Shown: positions 2,001 to 64,000 of the stretch, piece by piece | Position numbering within the stretch: position 1 is the stretch's first letter | How the letters are laid out: every line of letters starts with the position of its first letter | IMG/VR virus record: IMGVR_UViG_3300033069_001107 | Coordinates: 1 to 64,000 of that record | DNA: 64,000 nucleotides | Strand: one strand, 5' to 3' | Origin: an uncultured virus (IMG/VR IMGVR_UViG_3300033069_001107) | Lineage: Duplodnaviria > Heunggongvirae > Uroviricota > Caudoviricetes | Made by a program: the position numbers and the translations under genes | Notes under the pieces: model-generated | Databases searched by the model: none | What the model saw: the letters and a program-made list of their open reading frames with translations, nothing else | What the model was told of the DNA's origin: nothing

Positions 2001-2067
2001 AAAAGAAAACCACGCCGTATGGACTACCACCCCCGACCCATTCGGTGGCGGTAGTCCATACGGCGTA
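2001..2067 (-). terminator. intrinsic terminator whose stem contains the TACGSCGTA motif
   Basis: 17-bp inverted repeat ACGCCGTATGGACTACC/GGTAGTCCATACGGCGT; minus-strand TTTTCTTTT tail. Confidence 0.7.
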
Positions 2068-2071
2068 TGCC

Positions 2072-2368
2072 TCACTTTCGCCCCACAAGTGCCGCGTGCA
2101 GCACTCGCAAGGCGTCCCACGGCCGCAGCGAGGTCTCCTCGCGAACGTACTCCTGAATCTGTCGATCCAGGAGCGCGAACCAGACCCCAGCCACGCCCGC
2201 TCCGAAGGTGATCACGCAGATGTTCCTGCGAAGGACCGCCGACTCCTCGGTCCAGATCGTGAGGCTCAGCGCCGCCACGACCCCAGCCGAGACCGCAAAC
2301 AAACTGGCGTAAAACGCCACGCTCTTGACCGCCGCGCGATGCGCAGGGTCGGACAGGTTGATTCCCAT
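2072..2368 (-). CDS. small membrane protein with two hydrophobic helices
   Basis: Two hydrophobic segments; AAGGAGGT RBS. Confidence 0.75.
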   Translation of the reverse strand: MGINLSDPAHRAAVKSVAFYASLFAVSAGVVAALSLTIWTEESAVLRRNICVITFGAGVAGVWFALLDRQIQEYVREETSLRPWDALRVLHAALVGRK

Positions 2369-2373
2369 ACCTC

Positions 2374-2402
2374 CTTATACCCGAAAAGGGTGGGAGGTTC
2401 GG
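2374..2402 (-). promoter_or_regulatory. class A phage promoter, copy 1
   Basis: CCGAA-N11-TTTCGGGTATAAG directly upstream of the RBS of 2072..2368. Confidence 0.7.
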
Positions 2403-2406
2403 GGAG

Positions 2407-2595: not shown

Positions 2596-2596
2596 G

Positions 2597-3739: not shown

Positions 3740-4388
3740 CCACCCTCCTGATTCGCCCCTTGAACGCCTCCTCCACCCGGGCGTCGTTGTTGTAGTCCTT
3801 GTCCACGTACACCGTCTGAATCCCTCCGCTCAGCAGCGCCTTGGCGCAGTTCCAGCAGGGGTAGGTGTTCGTGTAAATGTCCGCGTCCTTGATCGATACG
3901 CCGTATAGCGCCGCCTGCGCCACCGCGTTCATCTCCGCGTGCACCGTCCGCACGCAGGTCTCCCGCCCGTTCGTGACCACGATGTCGTGCCCCACGTCGT
4001 CGCAGTGAGGCATCCCAGGGGGCGAGCCGTTGTACCCCGTCGCGATGATGCGCCGATCCCGCACGATCACCGCCCCCACATGCTTGCGGTCGCAGGTGGC
4101 GCGGGTGGCCACGACCTGGGCGATGTTCATGAAGTAGACGTGCGTGGAAGGTCGGAGATCCGTCGCCTTGTACAGGTGTTCGAGGGTGTCGTCAGGGAAC
4201 CCCGCGACCTCCGAAAGGTCACCGCCGATCGCGATCATGAGCGACTTGACGCTGCGATAGCGATTGACCTCGCCCCCGCAGTACGCGCGAGCCGCTGCCA
4301 TGGACCGCTCGATCATCTCCCGTGCTTCCTTCGGCGTCCTCATCCTCATCTTCATCTCATCCATCGACTCTTCTCCCTTCGCTGTCAT
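3732..4388 (-). CDS. dCMP deaminase (ComEB-like) with N-terminal extension
   Basis: TCDRKHVGAVIV, TGYNG, and the zinc-deaminase motifs HAEMNA and PCWNC; exact start uncertain. Confidence 0.92.
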   Translation of the reverse strand: MTAKGEESMDEMKMRMRTPKEAREMIERSMAAARAYCGGEVNRYRSVKSLMIAIGGDLSEVAGFPDDTLEHLYKATDLRPSTHVYFMNIAQVVATRATCDRKHVGAVIVRDRRIIATGYNGSPPGMPHCDDVGHDIVVTNGRETCVRTVHAEMNAVAQAALYGVSIKDADIYTNTYPCWNCAKALLSGGIQTVYVDKDYNNDARVEEAFKGRIRRVGE

Positions 4389-5396: not shown

Positions 5397-5520
5397 GGGT
5401 CTCCTATACGGCGTATTCGTCCGCCGCCCGAACCCTCGACACGCAGGGGCTCGGGCGGAGGACGAAGTCGAGCGCACCCACAACATGTGGGTGCGCTCAT
5501 CCTTCTACCTGTGTTCTGGG

Positions 5521-8489: not shown

Positions 8490-8514
8490 GCTTCCTCCAT
8501 ACGCCGTATTGGCG

Positions 8515-9717: not shown

Positions 9718-10002
9718 ATGGATGTCACCGGCCACCAGCTGGATGCGCTGATACGCCGTACGCGAGACTTCGCGCCGTGCGCCACCCTTCTCGCCATCCG
9801 TGACCACTACCGAACCACGGTCTGGGGGCGCTTCTGCTTCGCCCCCGACCGGCAAGCCCCGCTCTTCGAAGCCTACCATCGAAGATCCCTCGAACCCTTC
9901 TCCTATCCTGATCTCGACGCCGAGATCGACCGCACCAACACCATCACCATCACGCTGGAGGCCCCCTATGACACGCTGGCTCAGGAAGTCATTCGTCCGT
10001 GA
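9718..10002 (+). CDS. hypothetical protein
   Basis: First of three plus-strand ORFs. Confidence 0.6.
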   Translation: MDVTGHQLDALIRRTRDFAPCATLLAIRDHYRTTVWGRFCFAPDRQAPLFEAYHRRSLEPFSYPDLDAEIDRTNTITITLEAPYDTLAQEVIRP

Positions 10003-10620: not shown

Positions 10621-10671
10621 AGAAAGAGGGGAGCGGCGTACGGCGTACGACCGAAGTCGTACGCCGTACGC
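10619..10671 (-). terminator. terminator between convergent genes, stem built from two TACGSCGTA motifs
   Basis: GCGTACGGCGTACGAC-CGAA-GTCGTACGCCGTACGC; c(UUCG)g loop and TTTCTTT tail on the minus strand. Confidence 0.75.
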
Positions 10672-12047: not shown

Positions 12048-12761
12048 ATGAAGTCACCCGTCGCCTTCTGCGGTCGCAAGAAGTCTGGCAAGTCCACCAT
12101 GGCCGCGTACCTCGTCTCCAAGGGGTACACCGAGCTCTCGCTCGCGGCTGAGCTCAAGACCCTCGCGGTCATGCTCTTCCCGAGCGTGCTCACCCCGGCC
12201 CGCGTCAACGCCACCTCCGACGCCAAGGATGCCGTGTTCACGCCCGCCGAGCGTCGGGCGTCGGCGAACAACTCCCTCGCAGCCACCACATCCATTCGCC
12301 ACGACCCCGATGTGCGCGCCGTGCTCACCAAGCTCTTCTCGGGCGCGGAGAAGCCGCCCACGAACTACGAGATGTCGGACCGCTTCGCCCGCGTCTTCGC
12401 GAACGTCGAGCGATCTCTCGCGAGCCCCCGCACCATCCTCCAGGTGCTCGGCACGGAGTGGGGGCGCTCTCTCTGGGAGGACGTGTGGCTGAACAGCGTA
12501 CGGCGTACGATCGTGGACAAGCCCGGCCTCTACGTGATCCCCGACGCGCGCTTCCCCAACGAGCTCACCTACCTCAAGCAGCGCCTGGGGGCCTCGTGTT
12601 ACTGGCTGGAGGCGGAGACGCGGCTGGGCCCCAACAAGGACGAGCACGCCTCGGAGCCCAAGCGCGAGGCGATGATCGGCCAGTGCGACGGCGAGGTCGA
12701 CACCAACGGCCCGGTGGGCGATTCGCACGCCCAGATCGAGCGTCTCATCCTCGCGACCTGA
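12048..12761 (+). CDS. deoxynucleoside monophosphate kinase
   Basis: P-loop GRKKSGKST; PRTILQVLGTEWGR, DARFPNE and HASE motifs. Confidence 0.9.
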   Translation: MKSPVAFCGRKKSGKSTMAAYLVSKGYTELSLAAELKTLAVMLFPSVLTPARVNATSDAKDAVFTPAERRASANNSLAATTSIRHDPDVRAVLTKLFSGAEKPPTNYEMSDRFARVFANVERSLASPRTILQVLGTEWGRSLWEDVWLNSVRRTIVDKPGLYVIPDARFPNELTYLKQRLGASCYWLEAETRLGPNKDEHASEPKREAMIGQCDGEVDTNGPVGDSHAQIERLILAT

Positions 12762-14871: not shown

Positions 14872-14927
14872 AAAAGAAGGGGTGTCCGTCTACGGCGTAC
14901 GCCCCAGGGCATGGGGCGTACGCCGTA
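14872..14927 (-). terminator. terminator, stem built from two TACGSCGTA motifs
   Basis: TACGGCGTACGCCCCA-GGGCA-TGGGGCGTACGCCGTA; TTCTTTT downstream on the minus strand. Confidence 0.65.
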
Positions 14928-19294: not shown

Positions 19295-19731
19295 TGAAAC
19301 CTTTCGTTGCACACCGCACACACGTGCGGAATGCCTTCGCTGAGGTGGTACTTGGTGGTCTTGACGAGGACGTTCCGCAGTTGGCCGAAGCAGTGAGGCC
19401 CGGGATGGACGAGCCTGCCGCCCTTGAGCTCGTAGCAGAGCGGGGCGGGGTAGGTCGAAGTGGGGAAGAGGGCCGCACGCACGAGGGAGAGGACCTTGTG
19501 CATGTGGGGGGAGGGGGTCTTGAATACGCCGTACGCGTAGACTTCACCCAGGAGGAGGAACGGGAAACGGCGGTAGCAGTAGTAGCCCTGCTTGTCGTTC
19601 CGCACGTAGGCGACGGGCTCCATCCCCGGGATGCGGATGCGCCCCTCCTCGACAGTCAGCGTAGGCGTCACACCCAGCTCCTGCCACTCGGCCTTGTCCT
19701 GATCCTTCATCACCACTTCGACCACTCTCAT
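19291..19731 (-). CDS. hypothetical protein
   Basis: Start ATG 19731; coupled to neighbours on both sides. Confidence 0.65.
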   Translation of the reverse strand: MRVVEVVMKDQDKAEWQELGVTPTLTVEEGRIRIPGMEPVAYVRNDKQGYYCYRRFPFLLLGEVYAYGVFKTPSPHMHKVLSLVRAALFPTSTYPAPLCYELKGGRLVHPGPHCFGQLRNVLVKTTKYHLSEGIPHVCAVCNERFQ

Positions 19732-22389: not shown

Positions 22390-22930
22390 CAGTCTCTCCG
22401 ATTGGGATGTTGTCCACGGACATGAGTAGGAGCGTCTGGTTCGCACACTTGCGGCGCTGGGTGGCTTCGTCGTAGGGGGTGTAGTCGTCGGTGTAGTAGC
22501 GCGCCGAGTTGTACGCCCTGGGCTTCTCGCTGCCGGGAGCCGTCTCGATCACGCTGGTCCAGTACGCCGTAATGCCGCTGAGGTGGACACGCGCCAGATG
22601 CGGCGCCACGTACCCAACGAAGCGACGCACGGCGACCACTCGGCAACCACGCACCTTCCCTACGAAGAACCCGTGATCCCCCGAGGCCCAGCGCAGACTC
22701 TCAGGGAGCCCCCAAAGGGCACCCTCGTGGGTTTCTTGGTGGGATACGACTACGACTTCCGCCCCCGCCTTGAGGCGTCCGATGTGCCTGAGGATTCGCT
22801 GTTCACTGGCGGCGTACCAGTGGGCGGTCTCCGCGTCCAGCCAGCGGTCTTCGGCGGTGTACCTTCCGGCAGGACTCCTGAGCGTCCCGTCTGCGTTCTT
22901 GATGGCGAGGCTGAAGGAGGTCTTTGACAT
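22382..22930 (-). CDS. hypothetical protein
   Basis: Start ATG 22930 with AGGAG RBS. Confidence 0.7.
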   Translation of the reverse strand: MSKTSFSLAIKNADGTLRSPAGRYTAEDRWLDAETAHWYAASEQRILRHIGRLKAGAEVVVVSHQETHEGALWGLPESLRWASGDHGFFVGKVRGCRVVAVRRFVGYVAPHLARVHLSGITAYWTSVIETAPGSEKPRAYNSARYYTDDYTPYDEATQRRKCANQTLLLMSVDNIPIGETDG

Positions 22931-25581: not shown

Positions 25582-25606
25582 TCGGACCGTATACGGCGTA
25601 CGGGGC

Positions 25607-29871: not shown

Positions 29872-29894
29872 ACCCCTATACGGCGTATTCGACC

Positions 29895-42896: not shown

Positions 42897-45800
42897 ATGG
42901 CTTTCGACCCCAACGCCGCCCGCTCTGGGTCGGTCCTCTCGACTAATCCGCTCTACCTCGCCGCCTGGGTTTGCTACATCAACGGCCTCTACACCCCGAT
43001 CATCGGCTTCGATGTCGATTACGGCGTATGGGCGTTCCCGACCTTCCGTATCCACCTCCTCCCGGACCCGTCCATCGAGCGCCTGGGGGCCGAGGACCGC
43101 GTTCAGGTAGCGATCTTCTACCTGGATCACTGGTACGATCCGAGCAAGCCGGAGCCCCGACTCCTGGTTGATGGCGAGATCACCTCGTGGGGCTTCACGA
43201 ACGTGGGCGGCGGTCGCGCGATCACGTTCAACTGCGTCGCGCACGCGCGCATCTTTGAGCAGCTCTACTTCTATTACATGACCAATGTCGACGACATCGT
43301 CGCCTCGCGGTCACCAGATGTTGCGGCCACTTCCGTCGCGACGACCCCGGGCCCCTTCTACCCCTACGGACTCTTCCACCAGGGGCTTACACCCACCGCA
43401 GAACAAGCGGCATCTGAGACCGCTGGCTACTCCGGCGCTGCGCCTGCGTCGAGTGCGGAGGTGTCTCCGTCCACGCCGATCCAGGCGCCCTACGAGTTCG
43501 TCACGAACGTGATTCGTGGCTGCATCTCTTCTGAGGTGCCCGACTCTCGACGCTCGGCGCCGATGATGAACTTCTTCGCGCGATGGATTCGAACCACCAG
43601 CTTCCACAACCGATGGGTGCGCCTGCCCATGCTGGAAGACCCAGCCAACCTGAGCCAGCGGATCGGGGTGTTCCCGATCTTCAACGCGGCCAGGAACTCC
43701 GAAGCGCTGACGGCCATGCAGCGCCACGTGAGCTCTCAGGTCGGGAACTCGGGCAACATCTGGAATCTCTTTCAGCAAGTGCTCGGGCTTGTGAACATGG
43801 AGATCGGGATGATCCCGAACCCGTGCTCCGTGATGGTGCAGCTGAATGACACCAGCGGCGGTGCCACCTCCAACCCCACCGATGGTCGAATCATCGAGGC
43901 GCCGCGCTACGCCACGCCCCTACGCGACCAGAGGTCGATCTCGGAGCGCGCTCCTCTGCCCGAGTTCAACCCCGCACCTGTGGGTCCGACTCCGCTCCCC
44001 TCGATCGAGGCGGATCTCTATCGCGCCTCTCAGCCTGGAGACAGCGTTCGCATGCCTGCGAACTCTCAGGGCGGCGTTGAGCAGGGCATAAACCCCACCA
44101 CGCCCATCCGACTGGCGCAATACTTCGTCAAGCCGCAGAACTTCTTCGGGGAGCCGCCTGCCTGCAACATCATCTTCCCCAGCATGATCAGTGAAGGCTG
44201 GGGGTTCAACGAGGACTTCGCAGGCCAGCCGACGCGCAGCCTCGTGAACGATTCCGTGATGACCAACCTCCTGCGCGCGACCGGCCCCAACCGCGAGTTC
44301 ATGCTGCACGCGCTGTCGGTGGGGTACCCCGAAGAGGTCAACGCGATCCTGCATCACCGAGTCGGATCGGACAACCAGACGGCCAGTGGCCCCTCGGAGT
44401 CTGGGAAGAATCTCCTCATCTGGCCGGAGGAGTTCTTCAAGGGGCCCGTGGTCACGAAGGTGGATCTGCCTGCGTGGTTTCAGATGCTGCGGCAGTTCTC
44501 GAATGCGCAGGCGGACCCGGTTACAGGCGAGCCCGCGCCCACCACCAACAACCCCCGGGAACCTCAGGCCACTCCGGTTAGTACCACTCCCGTAGCATCT
44601 GTCCTTCAGGGGCTTACCGCTGAAGCTACTGCAAGCGCATCTCCACCCATCGCGCAAGACCGACGCGGAGGGCGTGCGCGCGGTGGAGAGGTACGTGCTG
44701 AGGAGAGCCCCTCGTACCCCTACCGATGGCTACTGCCTGATGAAATCGAGGCCACTGGGCGGGAACAACGTACGACGTATACCCGGGTACGTAAGTCCGC
44801 CAGCGGTGACGGGTTGACCCAGCAGAGCACCGACTTCGTGGAGCCGCATCGTGGTACGAAGGCGTTTCGCGACTACCTCTACACGAGGTTCCCGGATGTC
44901 TTCTCACGGCGGGAGCAGCGCCCCAACAGGACGATTGGGTTGGTGAGTCCGCGTGATCGACGACCCGTGCTCGCGGTGGGCGCCAACGTCGATGACCACA
45001 ATGCCGGAATGGCGCTTGACCTGACCGTTCCGCCGATTCAAGGACGCCCCAACCTGGAAGTCGGTACCCGCGTTGCGAACTGGCTGGTCCAGAACGCGCA
45101 GGCGCTGGGTATTGCGTATATTGTGTATGCTCGAACAATCTGGGGCGCTGGGAGGCCCTCTCGTCACTACACCTCTCCAGGTGCGTCCATGGATCACTTC
45201 GATCACATCCACGTGACCCTGGAGAGAGAGGTGGCGCTTGGGCGTGGCGGTATTCTCTCTCGGAACAACCCGCTACCGTACCCCTCTACTGCTGTGACGA
45301 ACGTGGTTCGTAGAGCCCCTACGGTGGCGGTACATCCGGGGGCTCCCGGTACGTCCACGCAGACAACCACGCAGAACGTGACGAGTCGCCCTGATACCAC
45401 GACCACGACGGGAGAAGCCCAGAGCGGCGACTCCTTCGCCGACCTCTTCGGCATCTACGCGCAGTTCGAGTACATCAGGTCCCGCTACTCCAAGCGCAAC
45501 GCCAGCGCACAGCTCTTCTTCAACCCCTACATCATCCCAGGCTTCCCGGGGATGATCTTCGATTCGATGGCGACGGGAATCCACTGCGTGGGCTACGTCC
45601 AGCGCGTGACGCACTCTGCCTCCATCTCCACGGGCGGAGCGCGCTGGGGCACGTCTGTGCAGTTCGGCTACGCACGCACGTTCTACGAGATGCTCACCGA
45701 CATCAAGGCGGACGCGTACCGCTTTGCGGCCCGCGTGACCAGCGCACCTGCGGACATCATTCCGGAGTTGCGCGAGGTCTTTCAGGATGAGACAGCGGCC

Positions 45801-46568: not shown

Positions 46569-47260
46569 GTGAGCTTCGCGCGCGCGATCAGATCCTGTGG
46601 GAGCAGTGGAACCGGACGCGGAGCAACGCGGACCTCGACGCGTTGGTCAAGCAGCTCAACCCGCTCATCCAGCAGAAGGTGAACCAGTGGGCCAGCGTCG
46701 CCCCGCGCTTCCTGCTGGAGAACGAGGCGAAGGCGCTGGCCATCAAGGCCATCAGCACCTACCGACCCGGCGCGTCGCAGCTCTCGACGCACGTGACGAG
46801 TCACCTGATGAAGCTGTCGCGTACGGCGTACGCAAGACAATCTACGTTGGCAGTCCCCGAGGCCACTCGCCTCTCATTCAACAGCATCAACGGCGCGAAG
46901 ACACGACTCGCCGATCAGCTGGGGCGCCCGCCATCCCTGGATGAACTGTCGGACCACCTTCGCCTTCCGCCCGCGCGCATCCAGAAGCTGATGCAGGAAG
47001 TGGGCAAGCGCGAGCTGATGGAATCCGGCGAAGGGCCCTCCTTCGTGCAGCACTTCGACGACCCGGAGGTCCTGCACCTCGCGTGGCACGACATGCCTCC
47101 GATCCAACGCAAGGTGTTCGAGATGCGTACGGGGTATAACGGCACCCCCGTCGCGACCGGCGCTCAGATCATGAAGGCGACGAACCTCACGCAGGGCCAA
47201 CTGTCGCACCAGCTCGGCAAGATCAAGACGCTCCTCGATCAGGCACAGAAACTCCGATGA
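46565..47260 (+). CDS. sigma-70-family RNA polymerase sigma factor (FliA/SigB-like architecture, divergent)
   Basis: Region 2-like AIKAISTYRP...LSTHV, region 3 LGRPPSLDELSDHL, region 4-like PPIQRKVFEMRTG..HTH. Confidence 0.85.
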   Translation: MSELRARDQILWEQWNRTRSNADLDALVKQLNPLIQQKVNQWASVAPRFLLENEAKALAIKAISTYRPGASQLSTHVTSHLMKLSRTAYARQSTLAVPEATRLSFNSINGAKTRLADQLGRPPSLDELSDHLRLPPARIQKLMQEVGKRELMESGEGPSFVQHFDDPEVLHLAWHDMPPIQRKVFEMRTGYNGTPVATGAQIMKATNLTQGQLSHQLGKIKTLLDQAQKLR

Positions 47261-48384: not shown

Positions 48385-48814
48385 TCTGCACATCCAGCTG
48401 AAGGATCCCTCACGTCAGCGCCCACGCGCCGTGTTCACCCTGGACACGACCAACCCACAGATCGTGGAAGGGCTTCAGAAGCTGATCAACCGCTGGCTCA
48501 AGCTGTTCCTGACGAAGAAGGGGTCGCATCCCGTACGGCGTACGGAGGGGACTATCTTCTCGAACCTCGTCGGGGGCAACATCGCGGACCTGCGTGGCAC
48601 CGAAGTCTACGTGATCGAGGCCATCGAAGACGCCAACGATCAGATCTTCGTGTACGACCGTCTCAACGTCACAGCGCCAGCCGAGGAGCGTCTCGGCAGC
48701 GCGGCCCTCGCGCAGTTCGTAGAGGTCCCACCGTCCGGGATCGAGTTCTGGGTCACGCTGCGCAACGCGGCGGGTGACAGCGCGCAGGTGGTTCTGCCTT
48801 ACGCTTACGCCTGA
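48374..48814 (+). CDS. baseplate wedge protein, gp25/gpW-like
   Basis: GLQKLINRWLKLFLTKKGS...EGT pattern; precedes the J-like gene. Confidence 0.7.
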   Translation: MSVDLHIQLKDPSRQRPRAVFTLDTTNPQIVEGLQKLINRWLKLFLTKKGSHPVRRTEGTIFSNLVGGNIADLRGTEVYVIEAIEDANDQIFVYDRLNVTAPAEERLGSAALAQFVEVPPSGIEFWVTLRNAAGDSAQVVLPYAYA

Positions 48815-50873: not shown

Positions 50874-53800
50874 TGCCTCTCACGCCGCAGAACAGCGCCA
50901 CGTTCTTGAAGGCGCTCTCCGACTTCTGGCCTATGTACTTCCAGGACCAGGGGTTGCTGAAGGCGTACGCGAACGGCATCTCCGTGAACGTGGCGCAAGC
51001 CTATCAGCTGTTTCTGGAGACGGTGCTCGGCACGAGCCTCCGGGACATCCCATTGTTCCAGCGCGAGTTCTACCGGCCGTACTACGTGCGTGAAGACCTT
51101 GTCCGGTACCGCGAGGGCGCCTCCGCTGAGGATGACCGCTACGAGTTTCTTGCGGGGGACTCCGTCCAATCTATTCGATTCCTGGCTAACCGCGTGCTCA
51201 GTCCTACAGCGTCCCTCCTGGAACTGCGGGACTTCACCGTGCGCCCTGGCGTGATCCAGTTCTTCACAAACCCCTTCGCGGGGGCGCTCGAATCGTTTCC
51301 GAGTCGCACCATCCAGGGGGTATCTCCTGCGGTTTGGCGGAACCCACTCCAGCAGACTTTCTCCTCAGTGCGCCCCGGCGACACTCTCCGCTGGCGCGTT
51401 GGGAACAGCGTTGTGACCTCGACCATCACCGGGGTAGACGGCGCGACGCTTCACCTGAACGACGCACCTCCTGGGGTCACCCAGGAGATTGCACGGAGAG
51501 GCGGCGTTGCCTACGTGACGCGTACGCCGTACGACAACACCGCGACCAATCGGCCCCTCTTCGATCACCCTACGCGCGTCACCCGACTCTCTGCGGACGC
51601 ATCCGACGGGATCACGATCGCGAGCAGCCGCGAGATGAACGTGAGCGGTCTCGCGAACTACCGTGGCGCTTGGGCCATCGCTACTACCTACGCCGTGGGC
51701 GACCTCGTCTGGCAGTCGGGCCGGGTGTGGCGCGCTCTGTCTGCCCACGTCTCGGGGGGCAGCTTCGACGCTGCTCTCTGGGACGACCTCGCCACCGGGT
51801 ACGTCTACATCCAGTGCCCGGCCCGCCCCCGTTACGCGCAGCTGGTTGCCCTCGAAACGCCCAGCGCCGCAGGGCGTATCAAACTCGCGCTCGGTGAGTT
51901 CAGCGAGGCCACGTCCACCTTCGTCTACCGGGTGACGTACGTCGCAACGACGGGGGATCGCCCCACCCTCCCGCTGGAGCACAAGCACATCACTCCCGGG
52001 ACCGTCTCCGTTCAAGCCCGACGCAAGCTCGCGCACACCACGGTCGACGTGCTGGGCGCCGCCACCACCTACCCCGCTGGGGAGGTGGTTCGGGAGGGTG
52101 TGGACTTCACCCTGGACTACACCGAGGGGCGCCTGACGGTGCTGACGGCGTGGGACCCCCTACTCCCCGCCCGCCTGGGGTACGAGTGGTCCCTGGAGGT
52201 CGCCCGCCAGCAGTACCGCTGGAGGGGCGCCTACGCCAATGCTACAGCATACCTGCGGGGGGATCTGGTGACCAGCGCCTCCGTGGTGTACGTCGTGACG
52301 CGCGACCACACCTCGGATGGAGTCCTCGCCTCCGACACCTACGTCCGTCTGGTGGAGCCGGTGACCCTCGATGTCTCACGCACCGTTCGTGAGTACGCCG
52401 TATGGGCGACCGACGCGCTGGTGGACGAGAAGCGCCTCGCGAAGAACTTCGGTGACCTCCTCCTGCGGGAGGCAGAGTCGAGCGAGGCGCAGCGCGCCTT
52501 CTTGCAGGCCGTCTCGCGCCTCTTCCTCGCGGGACCGAGCTTCTCGCTGATGACCTCGGCCGTCAACGCGATCCTGGGACTCCCGCTCACGCGAGAGGCC
52601 AACGAACTGCTCCTCGGGTACGACAGCGGGCTCCCGTACAACGGCAGCGGGGCGCGCGTCTTCGACACGCAGCAGGGCACTACGGGCGCGCTGTCCCACA
52701 TCACAGGGCGCTTCAGCGCGGCCGGAGCCCTGTTCCTCGCGTCGGACGTTGGTGGGTCGCTACTGGTGTTCGAAGACGGGGCCACCACGCCGTACGTGAT
52801 CACCGGCTACGTCTCAGCGACGACCGTGGCCGTCTCGCCCGCACCTGCGGTCAGCTCTTCGGATCTTCAGTGGGAGAGCCGTCACCGCGTCTACACGAGC
52901 CGTCTGCGCGTGAACCCGTCGGACTACGCCTTCAGCGCGGCCGACGTGGGGGCCTGGATCAAGCTCAGTGGCGCGATCGCCCGCAACCAGGGAACGTTCC
53001 GTATCGTCGGCGTGGACGACCCCACTACCATCGAACTGGATACGCCGTACGCGTTGATCGACGCGGGAGGGATCTCTTGGTCCCTGTCTCCGCGCGGTAC
53101 GCAGCGCGTCACCACCCATCGCGGCGTCTACGACCTTCCGCTCAACGTGCCTGTGCGCGGGGACCTGCGCAACAGCGCTAACTGGGGGCGCCTCCGTTTG
53201 CCTGCTCTCGACCCCATCTCTGAGGCGGTGCAGATCGATGACTACCTCACCGACCCTACGTGGTGGCACCACATCCAGATCCCCGAGGAGCTCTTCGAGG
53301 GCACCCCCGCGCAGCGAACCGTCACTCCAGCGCTGATCGAGCACGTCTACGGCGCGCTCGACGACGCGCACATCGGTGACGCAGGCATCTACATCGGCGC
53401 AGATGACCACTCAAGAGAGAGCACGCCGCGCCCCTTCACCGCTGTCTGGTACGGCGGCACTGCCATCAACTTGGTTGTGACCGCTCCAGGGCCTGCGCTG
53501 ACCGCGAAGGACAGCGGTACCTACGTGACTCTGGAGACCGAGGGGTTCGCAGGTGCGTTCAAGATCCTCCAGGTTCACTCCGACAATCGCACTGTCACGC
53601 TGGAGAACTTCCCACCTCCGGAAGCCCGGGGACGCGTAGCCCCACGCGCGATCACGGGACGCCTCCCCCCGCTGGTATTCCGACGCTCCGTCGCGTTCAT
53701 CTTGATGGATCAGGCCCTCAAGTACCACTGCGCGCGTCTCCGGATTGACCCCAGTGTGGACTTCTCTCGTGGCGTCATCTCGGACGTGTCGAGCATTGTT

Positions 53801-54391: not shown

Positions 54392-54876
54392 GGAAACTAC
54401 GCGTCAGCCGCCGCAACAAGCTCCCCCTCCGTGGTGAGATCTCGCTCACAATACGGCGTACGGACGGGCCCACCACTCGCTTGACCGTGCGTAACACCAT
54501 CACCTACGTCGGAATGAACGCCCTCCTGGCGCTCTTCGCGCAGGTCGGTATCACGGCGAGCGACTACGCCCCCAGCAAGCTGGTGCCCGGGACCAACGGG
54601 ACTCCCCCCACACCCGGCGACATCGCGATGGGCGCCCCGGTGGGCGGTCCGGATCAAGTCACGCTCAACGGCGCCAGCTTCTCCCACAACACAGCGGCGC
54701 GCGAGCTGGTGATCACGGGGACCCTCGCGACCACCCAGGCGAACGGGCAGACTCTCGCGGAGGTGGGGCTGGTGTTGGCCAACGGGACCCTCTTCGCTCG
54801 CCAAGTACACCCGGCCTTTCTGAAGGACGGAACGATGTCCGTGACCTACACGTGGCGCATCAGCACCACAGCGTGA
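54388..54876 (+). CDS. tail collar/fibre attachment-like protein
   Basis: NTITYVG, ANGQTLAEVGL...LFAR...K...YTWRI pattern. Confidence 0.7.
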   Translation: MRKLRVSRRNKLPLRGEISLTIRRTDGPTTRLTVRNTITYVGMNALLALFAQVGITASDYAPSKLVPGTNGTPPTPGDIAMGAPVGGPDQVTLNGASFSHNTAARELVITGTLATTQANGQTLAEVGLVLANGTLFARQVHPAFLKDGTMSVTYTWRISTTA

Positions 54877-57566: not shown

Positions 57567-57592
57567 CCTCTCAGACCTTCCTCAGATCCCTC

Positions 57593-60358
57593 TCAGCCGC
57601 AGCCGCCGCTCGCTCCGCACGACGGGCACGTGTAGCACGCCCCCGTACGCACCATGATCGTGCCGCAAACGCGGCAGGCGGGCGAGTCGTTGGACTGCAT
57701 CGCGGCCTGAGCGCTGGGCGACAGGAGCGTGATGACCTGGGCACGCTGAGGCACTTCCTCCTCGACCTCCCCCTGCACGTGCTGGAGGTCCGTGCGCTTG
57801 AGGTAGTGCACCGCCAGCACGCGCATCACGAGGTCGACGATCGAGGTCGATCGGCGGATCGTGTCGTGCTTCTGGACCGTGCCCGAGGGCTCGAAGCGGG
57901 TGAAGGTGAACGCCTCGACGAAGGTCGCCAGCGGTACGCCGTATTGCAAGCCGAGGCTCAGCGCCTTGGCCCACATGCCGACGAGACCGCCCAGGGTCGA
58001 GCCCTGCTTGGCGAGGTCCACGAAGACCTCACCGAGGGCGCCGTCCTCGAACTCCCCCGAGCGGATGTAGATCTTGTGGCCGTCGAGGTTGACGGCCCAG
58101 GTCAGCCCGCGACGGACCGTGGGGAGCTTGTGACGCTGGCCTTCGCGGAGGGGGCGCTCGACGCTGAACTCCTCCAGAGCCTCGACGAGACTCGGGCCCT
58201 CGGCCTTTGTCTCCTCCACGCCCTTCGCCTTGGTCGTCACAGGCTGGCTGTTCTTGCACCCATCCCGATAGACCGCGAGCGCCTTGATGCCGCTCGACCA
58301 CGCCTGGAGGTAGTAGCTCCCGATCTCCTCTGCCGTGGTGTCGTTGGGCAGGTTGACCGTCTTGGAGATGGCGCCGCTGAGGAACGGCTGGACCGCCGCC
58401 ATCATCGCGAGGTGGCCGTGGGCCGAGATCACGCGACCTCCCGGCGTCGGTGCGAGGGCGGTGTCGAACACCGGGAGGTGCTTGGGGTCCAGCCCCGGAG
58501 CACCCTCCACGGAGCCCGTCTGTTCGAGATGCTGGAGGATGCTGGCCACCGCCTCCGGCGCGTACCGCAGCGCCTCCAGCGTCATGCGCGTCAGCGGCGA
58601 CGCGATGCGCACGTCGCCGCCGCCCGCGAGCTGCTTGTACTGCACGTGACTCAGGAGCGGCTCAATCCCCGTGGTCGTACAGTCCATCAGGAAGCTGATG
58701 GTTCCCGTCGGCGCGAGGAGCGTGAGCTGTGCGTTGCGCAGTCCGTAGGTCTGGATGAGGTCCGCCGCCAGATCCCAGGTAAGGTGCCCGCCGCCGTGCA
58801 GGTGCTTGGTGTGCTTCTGGAACACGTGCCACACCCCCTCCTTGTCGGCCTCGTACCCCGCGAACGGCCCCATCCGCGCCGCCAGCTGGGCGCTGGTCAG
58901 GAACGCTGCGCCCATCATCGACGCCGTGATGTTCTGGGCGAACGCGCGGCCCTGGTCGCTGTCGTAGGCCATTCCCCGGATCGCGAGGAGCGCGCCCAGG
59001 TTGGCGTAGCCGAGGCCCAGCTGGCGGTACTTGTTGGCACCTTCCGCGATGGCCTTGGTGGGGTAGCTGGAGAAGGACACCAGGATGTCCTGGGCGATGA
59101 TGAACACGCGCGCTGCGGCCTGGAGCTTGTCGTGGTCGAAGTACCCCTGATCGAGGAACTTCACGAGATTCAGGCTCGCGAGGTTGCACGCGGAGTTGTC
59201 CAGGTGGGCGTACTCCGAACAGGGGTTGGTCGCGTTGATCCGCCCACCGTTCGGGGTGGGGTTCCAGGCGTTGAACGTGTCGTCGAAGTGGATGCCGGGG
59301 TCGGCGCAGAACCACGCGGCGTACGCGAGCTTGTCCCACAGCGCGCGGGCCCTCACCGTCTTGACGACGCGCCCATCGACGCGCGACGTGAGGTTGAACT
59401 CCGCGTTGTCCACGACTGCACGCATGAACTTGTCAGACACGCGCACCGAGTTGTTGGCGTTCTGACCATCCACGGTCTTGTACGCCTCCCCCTCCATGTC
59501 CCCGCTCCATCCGGCCGCGATGAGGTCTCGCGCCTTCTTCTCCTCCTTCACCTTCCAGTCGATGAACTCCTCGATCTCGGGGTGATCGACATCCAGCACG
59601 ACCATCTTGGCCGCACGACGGCTGGTGCCGCCCGAGGCCACGGAGCCCGCCGCCCGGTCGAACACCGGGAGGAACGACATCAGGCCCGAGGCGCGGCCCC
59701 CGGGCGAGAGCTTGGCGTCCTTCTCCCGGAGCTTGGAGAAGTTTGCGCCCGAACCCGATCCGAACTTGAAGAGGCGCATCTCCGCCTTGACGAAGTCCGC
59801 GATCCCTCCCGGCTCGACGAGGGAGTCGTCGATCGTGTGGATGAAGCAGGCCGAGCACTGCGGGCGCTTGTAGGCGGCGTCCACCTGCTCGACTTCGCCG
59901 TTCTCGTTCACGGCCCAGTTGCCCGGACCTCCGGGGATCTTGTAGGCGTGCCAGCGGCGCACGTTGAACCAGACCGGGGAGTTGAAGGCGCCGTACTGGT
60001 GGATGAGCAGGTAGGCGAGGTCGTTCTCGAAGGCGATGCGCTCATTCGTGTGCCTGAAGTACCCGAACGTGTGCCCTGCCATGCCGATCGTCTTCACCAC
60101 GCCTTCGATCATCGCGAAGACGCTGTCCTCCGTAACCGCCTCGGTGTGGATGAAGTACTTCTGCGCCGCGAAGTTGACGGCGGTGTCAGACCAGAAGTCG
60201 GGCGCTTCGACGTTCTCCTGCTTGAAGATGACCTCGCCGTTCATCCGGGCGATCCGAGCCGTCCGTCGCGTACGGTGGATCGCACTGAAGGGGGAGTCGG
60301 TCTTGCAGAAGTAGGGCTCGTAGGTCCAGGACTGTGTCTTGCTCTTTGTTTCTGTCAT
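57593..60358 (-). CDS. nrdJ: class II (adenosylcobalamin-dependent) ribonucleotide reductase
   Basis: FNSPVWFN, CSACFI, NPCSE, CNLASLNL, APTGTIS and YRDG motifs; TSCPD-like domain and terminal Cys cluster; start ATG 60358. Confidence 0.93.
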   Translation of the reverse strand: MTETKSKTQSWTYEPYFCKTDSPFSAIHRTRRTARIARMNGEVIFKQENVEAPDFWSDTAVNFAAQKYFIHTEAVTEDSVFAMIEGVVKTIGMAGHTFGYFRHTNERIAFENDLAYLLIHQYGAFNSPVWFNVRRWHAYKIPGGPGNWAVNENGEVEQVDAAYKRPQCSACFIHTIDDSLVEPGGIADFVKAEMRLFKFGSGSGANFSKLREKDAKLSPGGRASGLMSFLPVFDRAAGSVASGGTSRRAAKMVVLDVDHPEIEEFIDWKVKEEKKARDLIAAGWSGDMEGEAYKTVDGQNANNSVRVSDKFMRAVVDNAEFNLTSRVDGRVVKTVRARALWDKLAYAAWFCADPGIHFDDTFNAWNPTPNGGRINATNPCSEYAHLDNSACNLASLNLVKFLDQGYFDHDKLQAAARVFIIAQDILVSFSSYPTKAIAEGANKYRQLGLGYANLGALLAIRGMAYDSDQGRAFAQNITASMMGAAFLTSAQLAARMGPFAGYEADKEGVWHVFQKHTKHLHGGGHLTWDLAADLIQTYGLRNAQLTLLAPTGTISFLMDCTTTGIEPLLSHVQYKQLAGGGDVRIASPLTRMTLEALRYAPEAVASILQHLEQTGSVEGAPGLDPKHLPVFDTALAPTPGGRVISAHGHLAMMAAVQPFLSGAISKTVNLPNDTTAEEIGSYYLQAWSSGIKALAVYRDGCKNSQPVTTKAKGVEETKAEGPSLVEALEEFSVERPLREGQRHKLPTVRRGLTWAVNLDGHKIYIRSGEFEDGALGEVFVDLAKQGSTLGGLVGMWAKALSLGLQYGVPLATFVEAFTFTRFEPSGTVQKHDTIRRSTSIVDLVMRVLAVHYLKRTDLQHVQGEVEEEVPQRAQVITLLSPSAQAAMQSNDSPACRVCGTIMVRTGACYTCPSCGASGGCG

Positions 60359-60365
60359 GGGTCCT

Positions 60366-60932
60366 TCAGATGCTGGGTGTGAGGCGCACGCGCGGGGCCC
60401 TCTTGGGGGGCGGCGTGCGCAGTTGCTTGAGCACTTCGGCGGCGTGCCTTGTGCTCGGGAGACACTTTGTTGTGAAGCTGTAAGCAAGGTGCGCGAGGAT
60501 CGCCGCGTCAGCGGCGTCGTCATCATCTTCGCCAACCTCGGCGCGTAGCTTCCGTACGGCGTATTGGATCATGTCCGCCTTCTCCGCCGCACCATTGCCA
60601 GTGGCGTACTTCTTCAGTGAAGAGGGAGGGACAACGAGGGCCTCGACGCCGTATCGCTCATGAATGAGTTGCCGGAGCACTCCCGAAGCCTCGCCCATGT
60701 CGTACTCTCGATGGGTGCTGGCGAGGCTCGGACCTTCGATCGCAGCGGAGTGTGCCTCCGGGAACTCTTGAAGCACCGCCAGGGCTTCCGCGCGGATCTT
60801 GCTAAGTCGAGCTGCCCCTCGTATGGTAGATCCTATGCTAAGGGTGACCGCGCGACGGGGCTCTCCGTCTACCGCTACTGACAGCGCAGGCGCTCGCAAA
60901 CCCGGATCGACCCCAACCGACACATGAGCCAC
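60366..60932 (-). CDS. RuvC-like Holliday junction resolvase
   Basis: GVDPG, AIEG, PSSLKKYATGNGAAEK and DDAADA motifs. Confidence 0.88.
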   Translation of the reverse strand: MAHVSVGVDPGLRAPALSVAVDGEPRRAVTLSIGSTIRGAARLSKIRAEALAVLQEFPEAHSAAIEGPSLASTHREYDMGEASGVLRQLIHERYGVEALVVPPSSLKKYATGNGAAEKADMIQYAVRKLRAEVGEDDDDAADAAILAHLAYSFTTKCLPSTRHAAEVLKQLRTPPPKRAPRVRLTPSI

Positions 60933-61847
60933 GACGTAACACTCCGGATCAGGCAACAAGGGTACGTTCGCTCGAACGGCTATCAGGCGGTCCAGTGGGC
61001 GGTCACTGTGCCGGTGGTCGACCCCATCGGGACTCCGGCCATCGCCACCGACCCGGGCAGCTACGCCCCGCTCTACGTGATCGACACCGCTGGAGAGCGC
61101 GAGACATTACGGCGTATTGCCACCCTCCAGGACTATCAGGCGCTCCCCCGCTCCGAGCTGAAGTACTTCGACGTGCGGACGCTGGGTGCTGAAGGGCTCT
61201 CATGGTTCACCGATATGCAACTTGGCGACACGTTGCGCATCTTGGGACAGCCGCCCCACTGGGTACAGGATCAGGTTCCGTACACCGACTGGGACTTTGT
61301 CATTGATGACGTATCGTATCGCACCACAGGCGGGTCACCAAGCGTTCAAGTCGGAAAGACCATCACGCTGCCTGGGTACACCTTCACACCGGATGACATC
61401 GGACGCTGGGTGGAGCTGGTCGGGTTCGCAACCACGCAGTACAACGGGTTGACGCAGATCCTGAGCTACACCGGCAACGTCGCCACCGTGGACAAGAACT
61501 TCACCACCAATCAGTCTGGGTCAACGTGGCGATTCCCCTGGGTCCGCGTCCAGGAGGTGTTCTCTGGTCAGGAACCGCGCTACTTCCCTACGCGGATGAA
61601 GAACCTGTCCTGGGCTCGCATTCGCGACGGCCTCACCATCTGCTCTGGCGTGGGCGGCGGCGCTACCTGCCGCGAGACCTCCGGAGCGCTCGTGAGGTCA
61701 GTCCGCTACACGGAACTCGCCCCCACACTTGAGGAGGGGCTTGCTCTCCTCGAATATTCGTACGCCGAAGTCCAGCGCCTCCAGCGCCAAGCTGTCCTCA
61801 GCGTCGACAGCTTCCTCCCCCTCACCACGCGAACGGTGGGCCCGTGA
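60924..61847 (+). CDS. probable virion structural protein
   Basis: 307 aa; FTPDDIGRWVEL resembles FSAADVGAWIKL in 50873..54391. Confidence 0.65.
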   Translation: MSHDVTLRIRQQGYVRSNGYQAVQWAVTVPVVDPIGTPAIATDPGSYAPLYVIDTAGERETLRRIATLQDYQALPRSELKYFDVRTLGAEGLSWFTDMQLGDTLRILGQPPHWVQDQVPYTDWDFVIDDVSYRTTGGSPSVQVGKTITLPGYTFTPDDIGRWVELVGFATTQYNGLTQILSYTGNVATVDKNFTTNQSGSTWRFPWVRVQEVFSGQEPRYFPTRMKNLSWARIRDGLTICSGVGGGATCRETSGALVRSVRYTELAPTLEEGLALLEYSYAEVQRLQRQAVLSVDSFLPLTTRTVGP

Positions 61848-62224
61848 CCGCACCCTGGGTAGAGATTCGTGAAGCGCGTGATCGGGACGGAGACCTCTAC
61901 CGCGTCACGCTCACGATCGCGCAAGCACGTGAGATCCCCGACTGTCTGTTTGTGCTGGAGCGAGAGACTGACGCGTTCAATCGAGTCGCTTCCGTTCCGG
62001 ACCTGGAGGTACTGCCGCGCACGAGCGAAGACGCCTTCTCGCAGCACCAGCCGCGCTACCTGAGCGCGACCGCCACCAAGAGCTTCGAGCGCCCCGGGGC
62101 CCTGGTGGAGTTCCTCAGTCACGTCAGGCTGCGTATCACCGACCTGACCCAGGTGTGGGCGGGTGAGGTCGATCTGGATATCCCCGGGCTGTCCGTGTAC
62201 ACTCTTCCGTCGGAGCCCATGTGA
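61844..62224 (+). CDS. hypothetical protein, partial paralogue of 62221..63189
   Basis: IPDCLFV..DAFNRVASVPDL versus LPTASLFV..DALARVASPIDL. Confidence 0.7.
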   Translation: MTAPWVEIREARDRDGDLYRVTLTIAQAREIPDCLFVLERETDAFNRVASVPDLEVLPRTSEDAFSQHQPRYLSATATKSFERPGALVEFLSHVRLRITDLTQVWAGEVDLDIPGLSVYTLPSEPM

Positions 62225-63189
62225 CCACCCCTATTGCGATCCAGACGCGCCGTGTCGCCCCACAAGCTGACGGCAGTACGGCGTATGAGGTCACGACCCG
62301 GGTAACGGAGAAGCACGACCTACCCACGGCGAGCCTCTTCGTCGTGTCGATCACGGACCCGCTGAACCCCAAGTCGGACGCCCTCGCACGCGTCGCGTCC
62401 CCGATCGACTTGCGACGGCTGTCGGGGCTGCTCTATGTCCGAGTTGACGCGGCCTCGATCAACTACATCAACGCGGACCCCTTCGCCCGCGTCGCCAACG
62501 TCGACGACCTCACGGCCTACCAGACCGACCGGGCAGAGGCGGTGAGGCGTGGGCAAGGATTCTACCTCACGGACGCGTTCAGCGCGCTCTACACGGATCC
62601 GGCCACGGCCGACGCCGCCTACCGGCAGATCATCGCTCGCCTCTCTGAGCTGGTGACCAACTGGCGCGCGTACACGGCAGGGTTCGAGACCAATCCCACG
62701 CAGAGCTACCCGCTCCCATCTACGCCGCTCTCCGTGGAGGACCTGCGGCGCGCGGCGTACAGCGATGCAGTCACGATTCGGCAGCGCGCGGAAGCTGTTC
62801 ACGAGGCAGCACAGGCCGCGTACGAGCACTGCGTCACCGACTGCGCCCTCGATCGCGCAGTCCACGCGATCTTGCTGAGGGATGTGACCTTTCTGGAGCG
62901 CGCTCGGGCCCGAGTCGTTGCGATCACCGAGACCGACACCACGAACGCCAAGGACTTCGTGCTGAAGATCGGAGCGTTCGCCTCTGACTCGGAGAGCTAC
63001 GAGAACCTTCTCACGCAGAAGCGCACAGATCTGAACACGTACGCCGTACGCGTCCAAGCCTGCCAGGACACCTGCGCACAGTTGCAAGTGTCTCGCGACA
63101 GCGCCCAGGCTGACGTGCGCCGCGCCCTGGCTGATGAACAACGGGCGCTCGCCGACGTGCGTGCCGTCTGTCCCACTTTCGTCCCCTGA
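62221..63189 (+). CDS. hypothetical protein with C-terminal coiled coil
   Basis: 322-aa ORF coupled to the upstream gene. Confidence 0.75.
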   Translation: MTTPIAIQTRRVAPQADGSTAYEVTTRVTEKHDLPTASLFVVSITDPLNPKSDALARVASPIDLRRLSGLLYVRVDAASINYINADPFARVANVDDLTAYQTDRAEAVRRGQGFYLTDAFSALYTDPATADAAYRQIIARLSELVTNWRAYTAGFETNPTQSYPLPSTPLSVEDLRRAAYSDAVTIRQRAEAVHEAAQAAYEHCVTDCALDRAVHAILLRDVTFLERARARVVAITETDTTNAKDFVLKIGAFASDSESYENLLTQKRTDLNTYAVRVQACQDTCAQLQVSRDSAQADVRRALADEQRALADVRAVCPTFVP

Positions 63190-63196
63190 GGAACCC

Positions 63197-64000
63197 ATGA
63201 TCGACTTCTACAGCGACGCCGCCCACGCACACCTCCGCAAGCTCCTGGACCAGTTCCCCGGCACGCACGGGCTCCTGAAGAACGCCGAGTTCGAAGACAC
63301 CCGGGAAGAGATCCCTGTGAGCGCCTTCGCCGACTTGTCGGCGCAGCGCTTCCCCACGCACACCCCGGAGCATGCCGTGGTGTCGTTCCTCTACGCCCAC
63401 GACCAGGGGGCGCCTGCGGGGGTCATGCACAAGATCGCGGAAGCGCTCTACGCCTACGGGGTCGATGCCAGCATCTTCGTCCCCGTCGAGAACGTGAAGG
63501 TCGCCTCGGCGTCGCGCAGCATCTTCGAGGATGGTACCTACCCCGTCAACACGGTGGAGCAGGTCAAGATGGCCGAGATGCGCCTCTTCGAGGAGGCGCA
63601 CAAGATCAACCTGGACGCACGTGCCCGGGTGTTCAACAAGCTCGCGCACGCTGCCGAGGAGCTCGGGGTGGAGCTCACGCCACGCGCCCAGGCGTGGGGC
63701 ATGGCCGCGTACTGCAACCCGGAGGATCTGGCCCAGGCGGTGGAGGCCAGGAGCGCCCTGTGCAAGACCGCAGAGCTGAAGGTCGCGTACCGGGACCTCG
63801 CGAACAGCATCCACGAAGACCCCCACGCTGTGCGCGAATACGCCGTACGGGTCAAGGTCGCGGAGACCCTGGCGGAGATGGATCAGCGGGCGGGCCTGGA
63901 CGCCTACTACGAGCGGGCGATCCCCGACCCGCTGTGCAGCGTGTTCAACCGCCCCGCCAAGCTGGGCGAACAGCTGATGCACCTGGGCCCGAACACCTAC
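63197..64000 (+). CDS. partial ORF running off the window; K-x-A-rich probable head-associated protein
   Basis: GAGG RBS, ATG 63197, open to 64000, strong codon bias; absent from the ORF track because it is incomplete. Confidence 0.85.
   Translation, partial: MIDFYSDAAHAHLRKLLDQFPGTHGLLKNAEFEDTREEIPVSAFADLSAQRFPTHTPEHAVVSFLYAHDQGAPAGVMHKIAEALYAYGVDASIFVPVENVKVASASRSIFEDGTYPVNTVEQVKMAEMRLFEEAHKINLDARARVFNKLAHAAEELGVELTPRAQAWGMAAYCNPEDLAQAVEARSALCKTAELKVAYRDLANSIHEDPHAVREYAVRVKVAETLAEMDQRAGLDAYYERAIPDPLCSVFNRPAKLGEQLMHLGPNTY

Follow-up and report, generated by a model that had tools for sequence, protein, structure and literature searches.

The stretch of DNA analysed here, which we call the window, comprises 64,000 nucleotides (positions 1 to 64,000) of IMG/VR record IMGVR_UViG_3300033069_001107, from an uncultured virus of the Caudoviricetes. 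Spread across its genes and the gaps between them are 35 exact copies of the palindrome TACGSCGTA (S, G or C), from 2059 to 63847. An exact recount agrees with the number and coordinates given in a preliminary description of this DNA, and 31 of the 35 copies have the longer form RTACGSCGTAY, as had been noted. Dinucleotide-preserving shuffles of the window hold 0.16 copies on average and at most one (n = 100), and TACGSCGTA is the commonest 9-mer of the window's record. The GC content of the window is 64.6%, a little below the approximately 66% stated earlier. Open reading frames (ORFs) were called crudely, by picking on GC3 and taking the longest possible start, and the labels genic and intergenic are approximate near gene starts. 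Under these calls, the frames and peptides previously assigned to the copies at 37287, 43020, 54452 and 61108 are right. Two close pairs of copies (10639/10660 and 14891/14919) each form the arms of a perfect 16-bp hairpin. The copies are listed below, with the encoded peptide for those within genes.

2059..2067: intergenic, between ORFs 1561-1989 (minus strand) and 2072-2368 (minus strand)
3897..3905: within the dCMP deaminase gene 3732-4388 (minus strand), Y-G-V
5407..5415: 5' end of ORF 4596-5486 (minus strand); followed on the minus strand by TAGGAGACCC-ATG (ribosome site and start)
8500..8508: 5' end of ORF 8202-8528 (minus strand); followed on the minus strand by TGGAGGAAGC-ATG
9752..9760: ORF 9718-10002 (plus strand), I-R-R-T
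10639..10668: pair 10639 and 10660, arms of the perfect 16-bp-stem hairpin between convergent ORFs; DNA fold -22.8 kcal/mol, z -7.0
12499..12507: dNMP kinase gene 12048-12761 (plus strand), V-R-R-T; same codon in the relative G039
14891..14927: pair 14891 and 14919, arms of the 16-bp-stem hairpin upstream of the SNF2 helicase gene 12763-14856 (minus strand); -25.1 kcal/mol, z -6.6
19525..19533: ORF 19291-19791 (minus strand), Y-G-V
21955..21963: UvrD-like helicase gene 20896-22446 (minus strand), Y-G-V
22563..22571: intergenic
24345..24353: over the stop codon of ORF 24342-24758 (minus strand); followed on the minus strand by TAGGAGGTGA
25592..25600: intergenic, 11 nt past ORF 25159-25581 (plus strand)
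28769..28777: ORF 28645-28953 (minus strand), T-A-Y
29879..29887: intergenic, 20 nt upstream of ORF 29907-30275 (plus strand)
31744..31752: ORF 31610-32044 (minus strand), V-R-R-I
32610..32618: ORF 32381-32728 (minus strand), T-P-Y
37287..37295: 1191-aa ORF 36877-40452 (plus strand), T-P-Y; same codon in G039
40468..40476: ORF 40449-40640 (plus strand), V-R-R-I
42641..42649: ORF 41842-42888 (plus strand), V-R-R-T
43020..43028: 1223-aa ORF 42897-46568 (plus strand), Y-G-V
46822..46830: ORF 46565-47260 (plus strand; weak Sigma70_r3 match), T-A-Y
48534..48542: ORF 48329-48814 (plus strand), V-R-R-T
51523..51531: 1172-aa ORF 50873-54391 (plus strand), T-P-Y
52394..52402: same ORF 50873-54391 (plus strand), Y-A-V
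53041..53049: same ORF 50873-54391 (plus strand), T-P-Y; same codon in G039
54452..54460: ORF 54388-54876 (plus strand), I-R-R-T
57935..57943: class II ribonucleotide reductase gene 57593-60535 (minus strand), Y-G-V
60555..60563: intergenic, 20 nt upstream of the reductase gene start
61108..61116: ORF 60924-61847 (plus strand), L-R-R-I
62277..62285: ORF 62221-63189 (plus strand), T-A-Y
63040..63048: ORF 62221-63189 (plus strand), Y-A-V
63839..63847: ORF 63134-64198 (plus strand), Y-A-V

The record from which the window was taken (G000) is 74,140 bp long, carries 39 motif copies and has a CheckV completeness of 43%. A second record, G001 (172,885 bp, CheckV 100%), represents the same phage with a different circular permutation: G000 29084-74140 corresponds to G001 1-45057 at 100% identity, and G000 3331-29103 to G001 147093-172882 at 99.5%. 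G001 contains 92 copies of the motif, one per 1.88 kb. The phage is an uncultured 173-kb myovirus-type virus and a member of a clade. Its genes include those for a family A DNA polymerase, several helicases, a class II ribonucleotide reductase, ThyX, dCMP deaminase, dNMP kinase, thymidine kinase, terminase, tail sheath and RNA-polymerase-like subunits, and about 85% of its ORFs are without annotation. No near DNA match was found among the cultured phages of the phage collection, and at the protein level the best matches in cultured phages have 25-30% identity (SP-15, Listeria and Streptomyces phages, and Arash). Public runs containing the phage are aquatic, wastewater, freshwater and marine-plankton metagenomes, and three metatranscriptomes contain 42-44% of the sampled phage words. 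The four public runs compared with the phage consist of contigs only, so read ends and base modifications are invisible in them. Among the 40 listed of 962 differences in these runs, none lies in a motif and 12 fall at 37194-37342 with none at 37287-37295, a sample too partial to serve as evidence.

Selection on this array acts on the DNA rather than on the protein, as had been proposed. Synonymous-codon shuffles of G001, which keep the proteins and the codon usage of each gene (n = 100), leave 2.93 ± 1.47 copies in coding sequence (maximum 7), compared with 70 observed. The enrichment thus survives the kind of codon shuffle that the preliminary description had named as a possible refutation. 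GTA makes up 5.8% of valine codons, yet TAC-GSC-GTA encodes 35 of the 51 Y-[G/A]-V tripeptides against an expectation of 0.97, which bears out the claim that the motif forces an otherwise rare codon. The tripeptides are themselves in excess (51 Y-[G/A]-V observed versus 18.7 expected; 34 T-[A/P]-Y versus 14.6), indicating that the phage proteins are also bent by the DNA word. Sequences one mismatch away occur 0-13 times each, against 92 perfect copies in G001 and 71 in the relative G039. A central A or T is somewhat tolerated (9 and 19 copies) and other mismatches are not, so that the motif is all-or-nothing.

Comparison with relatives separates the persistence of the array from the persistence of its sites. 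At 80% nucleotide identity, in the 37-kb fragment G002, all 18 alignable G001 sites are kept, and 18 of 19 G002 sites are kept in G001. The sole exception has a central A in this comparison, and the central base flips between G and C in three sites. The eight outer positions are retained in 19/19 sites, compared with 21.8% of 34,139 control 9-mers (P = 2.7e-13), which provides the conservation in related phages that the preliminary description had proposed to look for. Further away, G039 is syntenic with a mean protein identity of 48%, and only 8 of 40 sites fall at the same codon; elsewhere the peptide usually differs. G046 has ACGSCGTA at 3 of 35 G001 places, as judged by eye. The spacing is more even than random throughout, a second property that had been put forward for checking. 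The coefficient of variation (CV) of the gaps is 0.68 in the window (P = 0.009) and 0.58 in G001, where random placement gives 0.99 and none of 20,000 simulations reaches the observed value. The largest gap in G001 is 5,166 bp versus 9,604 bp expected (P = 5e-5), and the smallest is 379 bp, four close pairs aside. The 71 copies of G039 have a gap CV of 0.59, reached by none of 5,000 simulations. Most places thus change while number and evenness persist, which argues for a function that needs coverage of the whole chromosome and not particular places, and points to selection that maintains this coverage.

Arrays of this kind recur in related phages. A motif-pair scan of IMG/VR returned 73 stretches; among the 50 counted of the 70 other records, arrays occur only in G039 (71 copies; 186,803 bp) and G046 (40 copies; 172,374 bp), both complete with terminal repeats, and the other 48 hold 2-6 copies. 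G002 carries 20 copies. The same scan of the genome collection gave at least 121 stretches, 80 of them among the matches listed. The iterated word of G046 is asymmetric, yACGSCGTAAAG, with CGSCGTAAAG present 62 times and a left half that is often CTT[G/C]ACG; relative to gene strand, 18 of these lie in the same direction, 21 in the opposite one and 23 between genes. A search with the ParB-like protein described below yielded five further genomes, all syntenic members of the clade.

G183, 34.7 kb: TACGSCGTA, 22 copies
G184, 51.7 kb: TTCACGNCGTGAA, 14 copies
G185, 22.8 kb: TTCACGNCGTGAA, 4 copies, and TTTACGNCGTAAA, 3 copies
G186, 59.2 kb: TACGSCGTA, 10 copies, 5 with an AAA flank
G187, 69.3 kb: TTTACnnnGTAAA, 6 copies

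Variants of the form TTTACGNCGTAAA or yACGSCGTAAAG thus occur in G185, G046 and G186. TTCACGNCGTGAA looks like parS, and the sites of these sister phages (TTCACGNCGTGAA, TTTACGNCGTAAA) contain the parS half-site TTCAC/GTGAA, of which the window's form keeps the inner TACG/CGTA only. The full site of the window's phage is R-TACGSCGTA-Y with weaker dyad flanks and a free central base. These observations confirm that the array is a real feature, under selection and common to the clade.

A separate cluster occurs in G187 at 65639-65917, where CCAAGTGAACTGC is repeated five times at 56-80-bp intervals, a local iteron-like arrangement apart from the genome-wide array.

A candidate reader of the motif is encoded in the same genome. 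The gene, at G001 48324-49508 (minus strand) and about 3 kb past the end of the window's record, specifies a protein of 394 amino acids, with an orthologue of about 360-400 amino acids at the same locus in all eight clade members examined. It matches the Pfam family HTH_ParB (PF17762, E 8.6e-7) and phrog_6218 of PHROGs, a ParB-like partition protein; PF02195 matches its orthologues below the cut-off of that family. A sequence search of solved structures matched Noc and ParB. The AlphaFold model (pLDDT 70.9) was compared by Foldseek, and among the matches listed, to E of about 0.04, only ParB, Noc and KorB entries appear, including the KorB-KorA-DNA complex and the KorB structures 8qa9 and 1r71. 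Normalised by target, the TM-scores against full proteins are 0.63-0.71; the value is 0.84 against the site-bound DNA-binding domain of Noc and 0.72 against the operator-bound domain of KorB. Both the GxxRxxA and ENxxR motifs align, and ENxxR is invariant. The phosphate motif reads GRRRVRA in G039, GRQRVRA in G184 and G185, GERRYRA in G187 and GRCRTRA in the window's phage. The DNA-binding domain exists in three variants that parallel the three motif classes, a covariation that is confounded by phylogeny. The small-ORF operon of the gene has a motif copy at its head, about 380 bp upstream of the gene itself, in G001, G039 and G046. A six-frame search of these three genomes with positive controls found no ParA-type ATPase (PF13614, PF01656), and no C5 or N6/N4 methyltransferase (PF00145, PF01555) was found in them or in the G002 fragment, other methyltransferase families not having been searched. 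No other sequence-specific DNA-binding fold was detected among the annotated phage proteins.

Directly upstream of the ParB-like gene lies a short stretch (G001 49509-49900, minus strand; same place in G039 and G046) in which two overlapping frames are both conserved among the three phages. One frame ends an ORF of about 37 amino acids with a CxxC...CxxC zinc ribbon, and the other starts an ORF of about 100 amino acids with a CYRHL-EGG motif. The stretch could represent overlapping genes, a frameshift site or a nucleic-acid element.

Two known systems come near this one in fold and in site. KorB, a CTP clamp, can slide as far as 1.5 kb away from where it loads, and its operator OB, TTTTAGCGGCTAAAA with the core ATTTTAGCGGCTAAAAG, is described as an odd palindrome with a free central G/C (PMC11790492). 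Twelve OB sites are recorded on the approximately 60 kb of RK2, and VirB and BisD are other ParB-family regulators (PMC13768133). The phage resembles this IncP plasmid in having a ParB-family reader, predicted here, with many odd palindromes over the whole replicon and one site at the reader's own operon. The RK2 sites, however, lie at promoters and are kept in position, whereas the 92 sites on 173 kb of the phage are mostly genic, even and turning over. The half-site sequence also differs, no ParA was found in the phage, and KorB has the locking partners KorA and TrbA. KorB additionally has a ParA partner, IncC. The second comparison is with ParB and Noc, whose consensus sites are TGTTTCAC-GTGAAACA for parS and TATTTCCC-GGGAAATA for the Noc-binding site, NBS (PMC7383237). 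Here the likeness lies in the protein fold, in the parS half-site of the sister phages and in the many chromosomal sites that Noc binds. In contrast to the window's motif, which has lost the TT/AA flanks, parS sites are even-length 16-bp palindromes that work with ParA. They are also few and clustered near the origin. A ParABS partition system was rejected because neither ParA-type family was found in the three complete genomes searched. With a predicted ParB-family protein on the same replicon (G001) and palindromes with parS- or OB-like half-sites in the clade, the array would belong, as judged from sequence, with the ParB/KorB-type operator arrays.

The odd palindrome like that of OB, the parS half-site in the sister phages and a 2-kb lattice that matches the sliding range lead us to rank first, with moderate confidence, the reading that TACGSCGTA copies tile the chromosome as sites at which an orphan ParB/KorB-family protein of the phage nucleates or is loaded. 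A dimer would dock on each palindrome by means of its helix-turn-helix domain of the ParB type. Provided that its nucleotide switch is intact, as it is in ParB, Noc and KorB, this dimer would then close into a clamp and slide 1-2 kb, and from about 90 evenly spaced sites the protein could cover the entire genome. We infer both this recognition and spreading and the role of the resulting coat, which may be genome-wide transcription control as with KorB, VirB or BisD, condensation, or protection and self-marking. The earlier suggestion of a DNA signal read by a dimeric phage protein is partly supported and is the best-supported reading, now with a ParB/KorB-fold candidate in the same genome as the putative reader. 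More tentatively, we envisage an apparently lytic clade of large phages that tiles its chromosome about every 2 kb with loading sites for an orphan ParB-type clamp, so that the whole genome would carry a coat of sliding clamps, a kind of 'chromatin' by which the DNA is marked, organised or controlled in its transcription. Selection would then act on coverage, that is on number and spacing, with enough force to change both the codons and the amino acids of essential genes.

Several observations weigh against assigning the sites to this protein. The proposed link draws on co-occurrence, architecture and a phylogenetically confounded covariation over three sub-clades of one phage family. The GRCRTRA motif of the window's phage has a cysteine where ParB and KorB have an arginine, so that nucleotide binding and sliding may be impaired. 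Residues aligned to the specificity positions of Caulobacter ParB follow the motif classes by no simple rule. The strict core of the site, 9-11 bp, is shorter than the 14-16 bp of parS, NBS and OB. Kribbella-type chromosomes, which are enriched for the word (see below), encode canonical ParB only, and no homologue of the phage ParB-like protein was found in them; something else can therefore drive the word. Finally, the large unannotated fraction of the ORFs makes another reader possible.

The bacterial enrichment gives rise to one competing explanation, in which the motif is a host-read or host-made signal: a highly iterated palindrome of the host lineage, produced by repair bias or serving a nucleoid protein or a Chi-like anti-exonuclease system, would have been amplified by the phage, and the ParB-like protein would be unrelated to it. 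Four named Kribbella genomes contain 587, 485, 390 and 245 copies of TACGSCGTA versus 10-22 of a reversed control, and the enrichment in Kribbella-type chromosomes is 10-60 times. In an order-level sample of 121 genomes (one of them, G120, unpublished), those of 7.3-9.8 Mb mostly have 220-850 copies and those of 2.3-5 Mb are mostly at about control level. Of the 65 Y-[G/A]-V tripeptides in a Kribbella sample of 400 kb, 14 use the spelling TAC-GSC-GTA (1.1 expected), and this rare-GTA spelling indicates a drive at the DNA level there too. Even spacing would suit Chi-like protection as well. The enrichment looks like that of HIP1 (GCGATCGC) in cyanobacteria, another hyper-abundant short palindrome written through genes against codon choice. 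HIP1 is tied to methyltransferases. The phage array departs from HIP1 in being kept in place and evenly spaced in genomes with none of the methyltransferase families searched for, and a HIP1-type, methyltransferase-linked palindrome was rejected on the latter ground. We consider a host signal unlikely, because the bacterial word differs from that of the phage in density, form and behaviour. The densest bacterial genome has one site per 10 kb compared with one per 1.9 kb in the phage, Kribbella-type genomes are sparser by at least five times (one per 10-35 kb), and the phage's density is reached by none of the approximately 570 bacterial genomes examined. Among 401 actinobacterial genomes, including 10 unpublished ones that all have low counts, the Kribbella centre alone stands out (548; the next are 69 and 58), and the maximum in 46 further named genomes is 169 copies in 4.4 Mb. 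Kribbella sites are flanked by GG...CC (10/32 sites), a form with no copies in three phage genomes. Half-sites lie within palindromes in 54 of 630 cases in Kribbella (both strands), where the half-site alone is abundant, against 184 of 267 in the phage. Kribbella sites are kept in 0/6 cases at about 80% identity and in 3/4 at 86%, compared with 18/18 for the phage, and in none of the 121 order genomes does the variant ACGSCGTAAAG of G046 rise above the control level. As a Chi-like word, it is enriched in Kribbella-type genomes only at the low density given above, and a palindrome allows no orientation test; that Chi sites known to date are asymmetric also counts against such a signal. The claim that the motif is a phage system rather than a host signal holds in part: in Kribbella-type chromosomes the word is sparser, differently flanked and not kept in place, but the same 9-mer is strongly over-represented there. 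Kribbella itself is a poor fit as the host: the phage occurs mainly in aquatic and wastewater metagenomes, which suit a soil genus poorly, and the taxonomy lists no Kribbella phage, nor was any of the papers listed relevant. For this reason no host is named here. Under the clamp-coat reading, the Kribbella enrichment could be the host's counterpart of the array, such as a set of decoy sites, or could share a mutational source with it.

The sites might instead be operators of another dimeric DNA-binding protein of the phage, which would repress globally or act as a roadblock, as at stoperators or phiC31 repressor sites, and would be encoded among the unannotated ORFs; most ORFs of the phage have no known function. 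Intergenic positions and gene starts account for about 30% of the copies, compared with about 11-15% non-coding DNA, several stand directly upstream of ribosome-binding sites, and in G046, by reading, 9 of 10 such copies point one way relative to the downstream gene. The 70 of 92 copies inside genes, several of them in single large genes, the 18 same-strand versus 21 opposite-strand genic copies of G046 and the lack of another sequence-specific DNA-binding fold among the annotated proteins all speak against it, and places that turn over while spacing is kept fit gene-specific operators poorly. We regard this explanation as improbable. The stoperators of phage L5, to which the array is akin as dozens of copies of one short repressor site over a phage genome, are asymmetric and oriented with transcription (PMC4351075); L5-type stoperators were rejected for the palindromic, mostly genic phage sites, whose G046 variant has no strand preference. 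A covalent transaction by a phage enzyme, either base modification for self-marking or site-specific nicking, would explain the all-or-nothing motif, as enzyme recognition sites are, and the dCMP deaminase, ThyX, dNMP kinase and thymidine kinase together with an SP-15-like helicase hint at modified bases. Yet a protective mark needs neither enrichment nor even spacing, a palindromic nick site would yield double-strand breaks, and with neither of the two methyltransferase families searched for being found in the three complete genomes or the G002 fragment, the self-marking modification site suggested in the preliminary description has no support; the prospect of such a transaction is slim. Least probable is that the sites serve a multisubunit RNA polymerase of the phage as promoters or as some other signal in transcription. 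The clade does encode RNA-polymerase-like subunits and some copies lie 8-20 nt upstream of start codons, but the motif is palindromic, largely genic and, in its asymmetric variant, indifferent to gene strand.

The nearest published parallels to the array are the KorB OB sites and the repeats of Cluster O mycobacteriophages. Genome-wide phage dyad repeats have been on record since at least 2015, without reader or function: Cluster O mycobacteriophages carry more than 30 invariant 17-bp dyad repeats, TGTTCGGNNNCCGAACA (34 in Corndog, approximately one per 2 kb), many within or beside ORFs (Cresawn et al. 2015, PMC4351075). A Cluster O genome also encodes a ParB-like domain protein; the function of the repeats is given as unknown, and neither a link to that protein nor a spacing test is reported there (PMC4351075). 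The likeness is that of an actinophage genome that combines a genome-wide dyad array with a protein bearing a domain like that of ParB; the Cluster O repeats differ in sequence, in length and in a 3-bp spacer, and belong to an unrelated family (siphovirus, prolate head). A 2025 survey describes many orphan ParB-CTPase-fold proteins in phages and mobile elements (PMC12704722). Among the papers listed by our literature searches, none concerns the TACGSCGTA motif and none gives a reader to such phage arrays.

The present array is an addition to the known genome-wide dyad arrays and multi-site ParB-family operators. It is set apart by unusually clear evidence for coverage selection and by natural specificity variants, which make the reader hypothesis directly testable with one recombinant protein and a 9-13-bp site; the TACG, TACG+AAAG and CACG forms allow cross-specificity to be compared. 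If the docking reading is right, the roles of ParB-CTPase clamps in segregation and in the silencing of plasmid genes would be joined by the coating of whole genomes in lytic phages, and a DNA word that overrides codon choice and protein sequence would be explained. Short orthogonal pairs of ParB protein and site would also be useful for DNA-labelling tools.

Some further features of the bacterial genomes were observed. In Kribbella-type chromosomes, among them those of G054, G155, G178 and G179, the copies are mostly GGTACGSCGTACC and number 245-850 versus 5-33 of the reversed control. In the Kribbella chromosome G054, four motif copies stand at an exact 32-bp spacing in a tandem repeat (G054:C1:478499-478603). 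An uncultured Prevotella metagenome-assembled genome (G057), from an unrelated low-GC lineage, has 276 copies in 3.3 Mb versus 35 of the reversed control.

The phage genome itself has other unusual content. The nucleotide-metabolism set of dCMP deaminase, DHH phosphoesterase, dNMP kinase, ThyX and thymidine kinase (window 3732-4388, 11209-12761 and 18476-19321; G001 95516-96082) and one helicase, whose best cultured match is Bacillus phage SP-15, hint at a non-canonical thymidine chemistry. Two ORFs, of 2,428 and 599 amino acids (G001 54611-61897 and 63890-65689), encode the best conserved proteins of the clade (62-76% identity); the shorter matches RNA polymerase Rpb1 domain 5 and the beta-subunit, and by sequence the two suggest a phage-encoded multisubunit RNA polymerase. 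Nine ORFs at G001 111713-113649 and 133733-136983 match DUF6197, and six of them form one run of small adjoining genes (133733-136983). Positions 1-3330 of the window diverge from G001, with patches 77-87% identical and the rest unaligned, and make up a region that varies between two strains of this phage. Within one 2-kb stretch of the window, a single sequence recurs as dispersed copies of 64-99 bp at 26169-26267, 27490-27576 and 27967-28065, seen as secondary BLAST matches.

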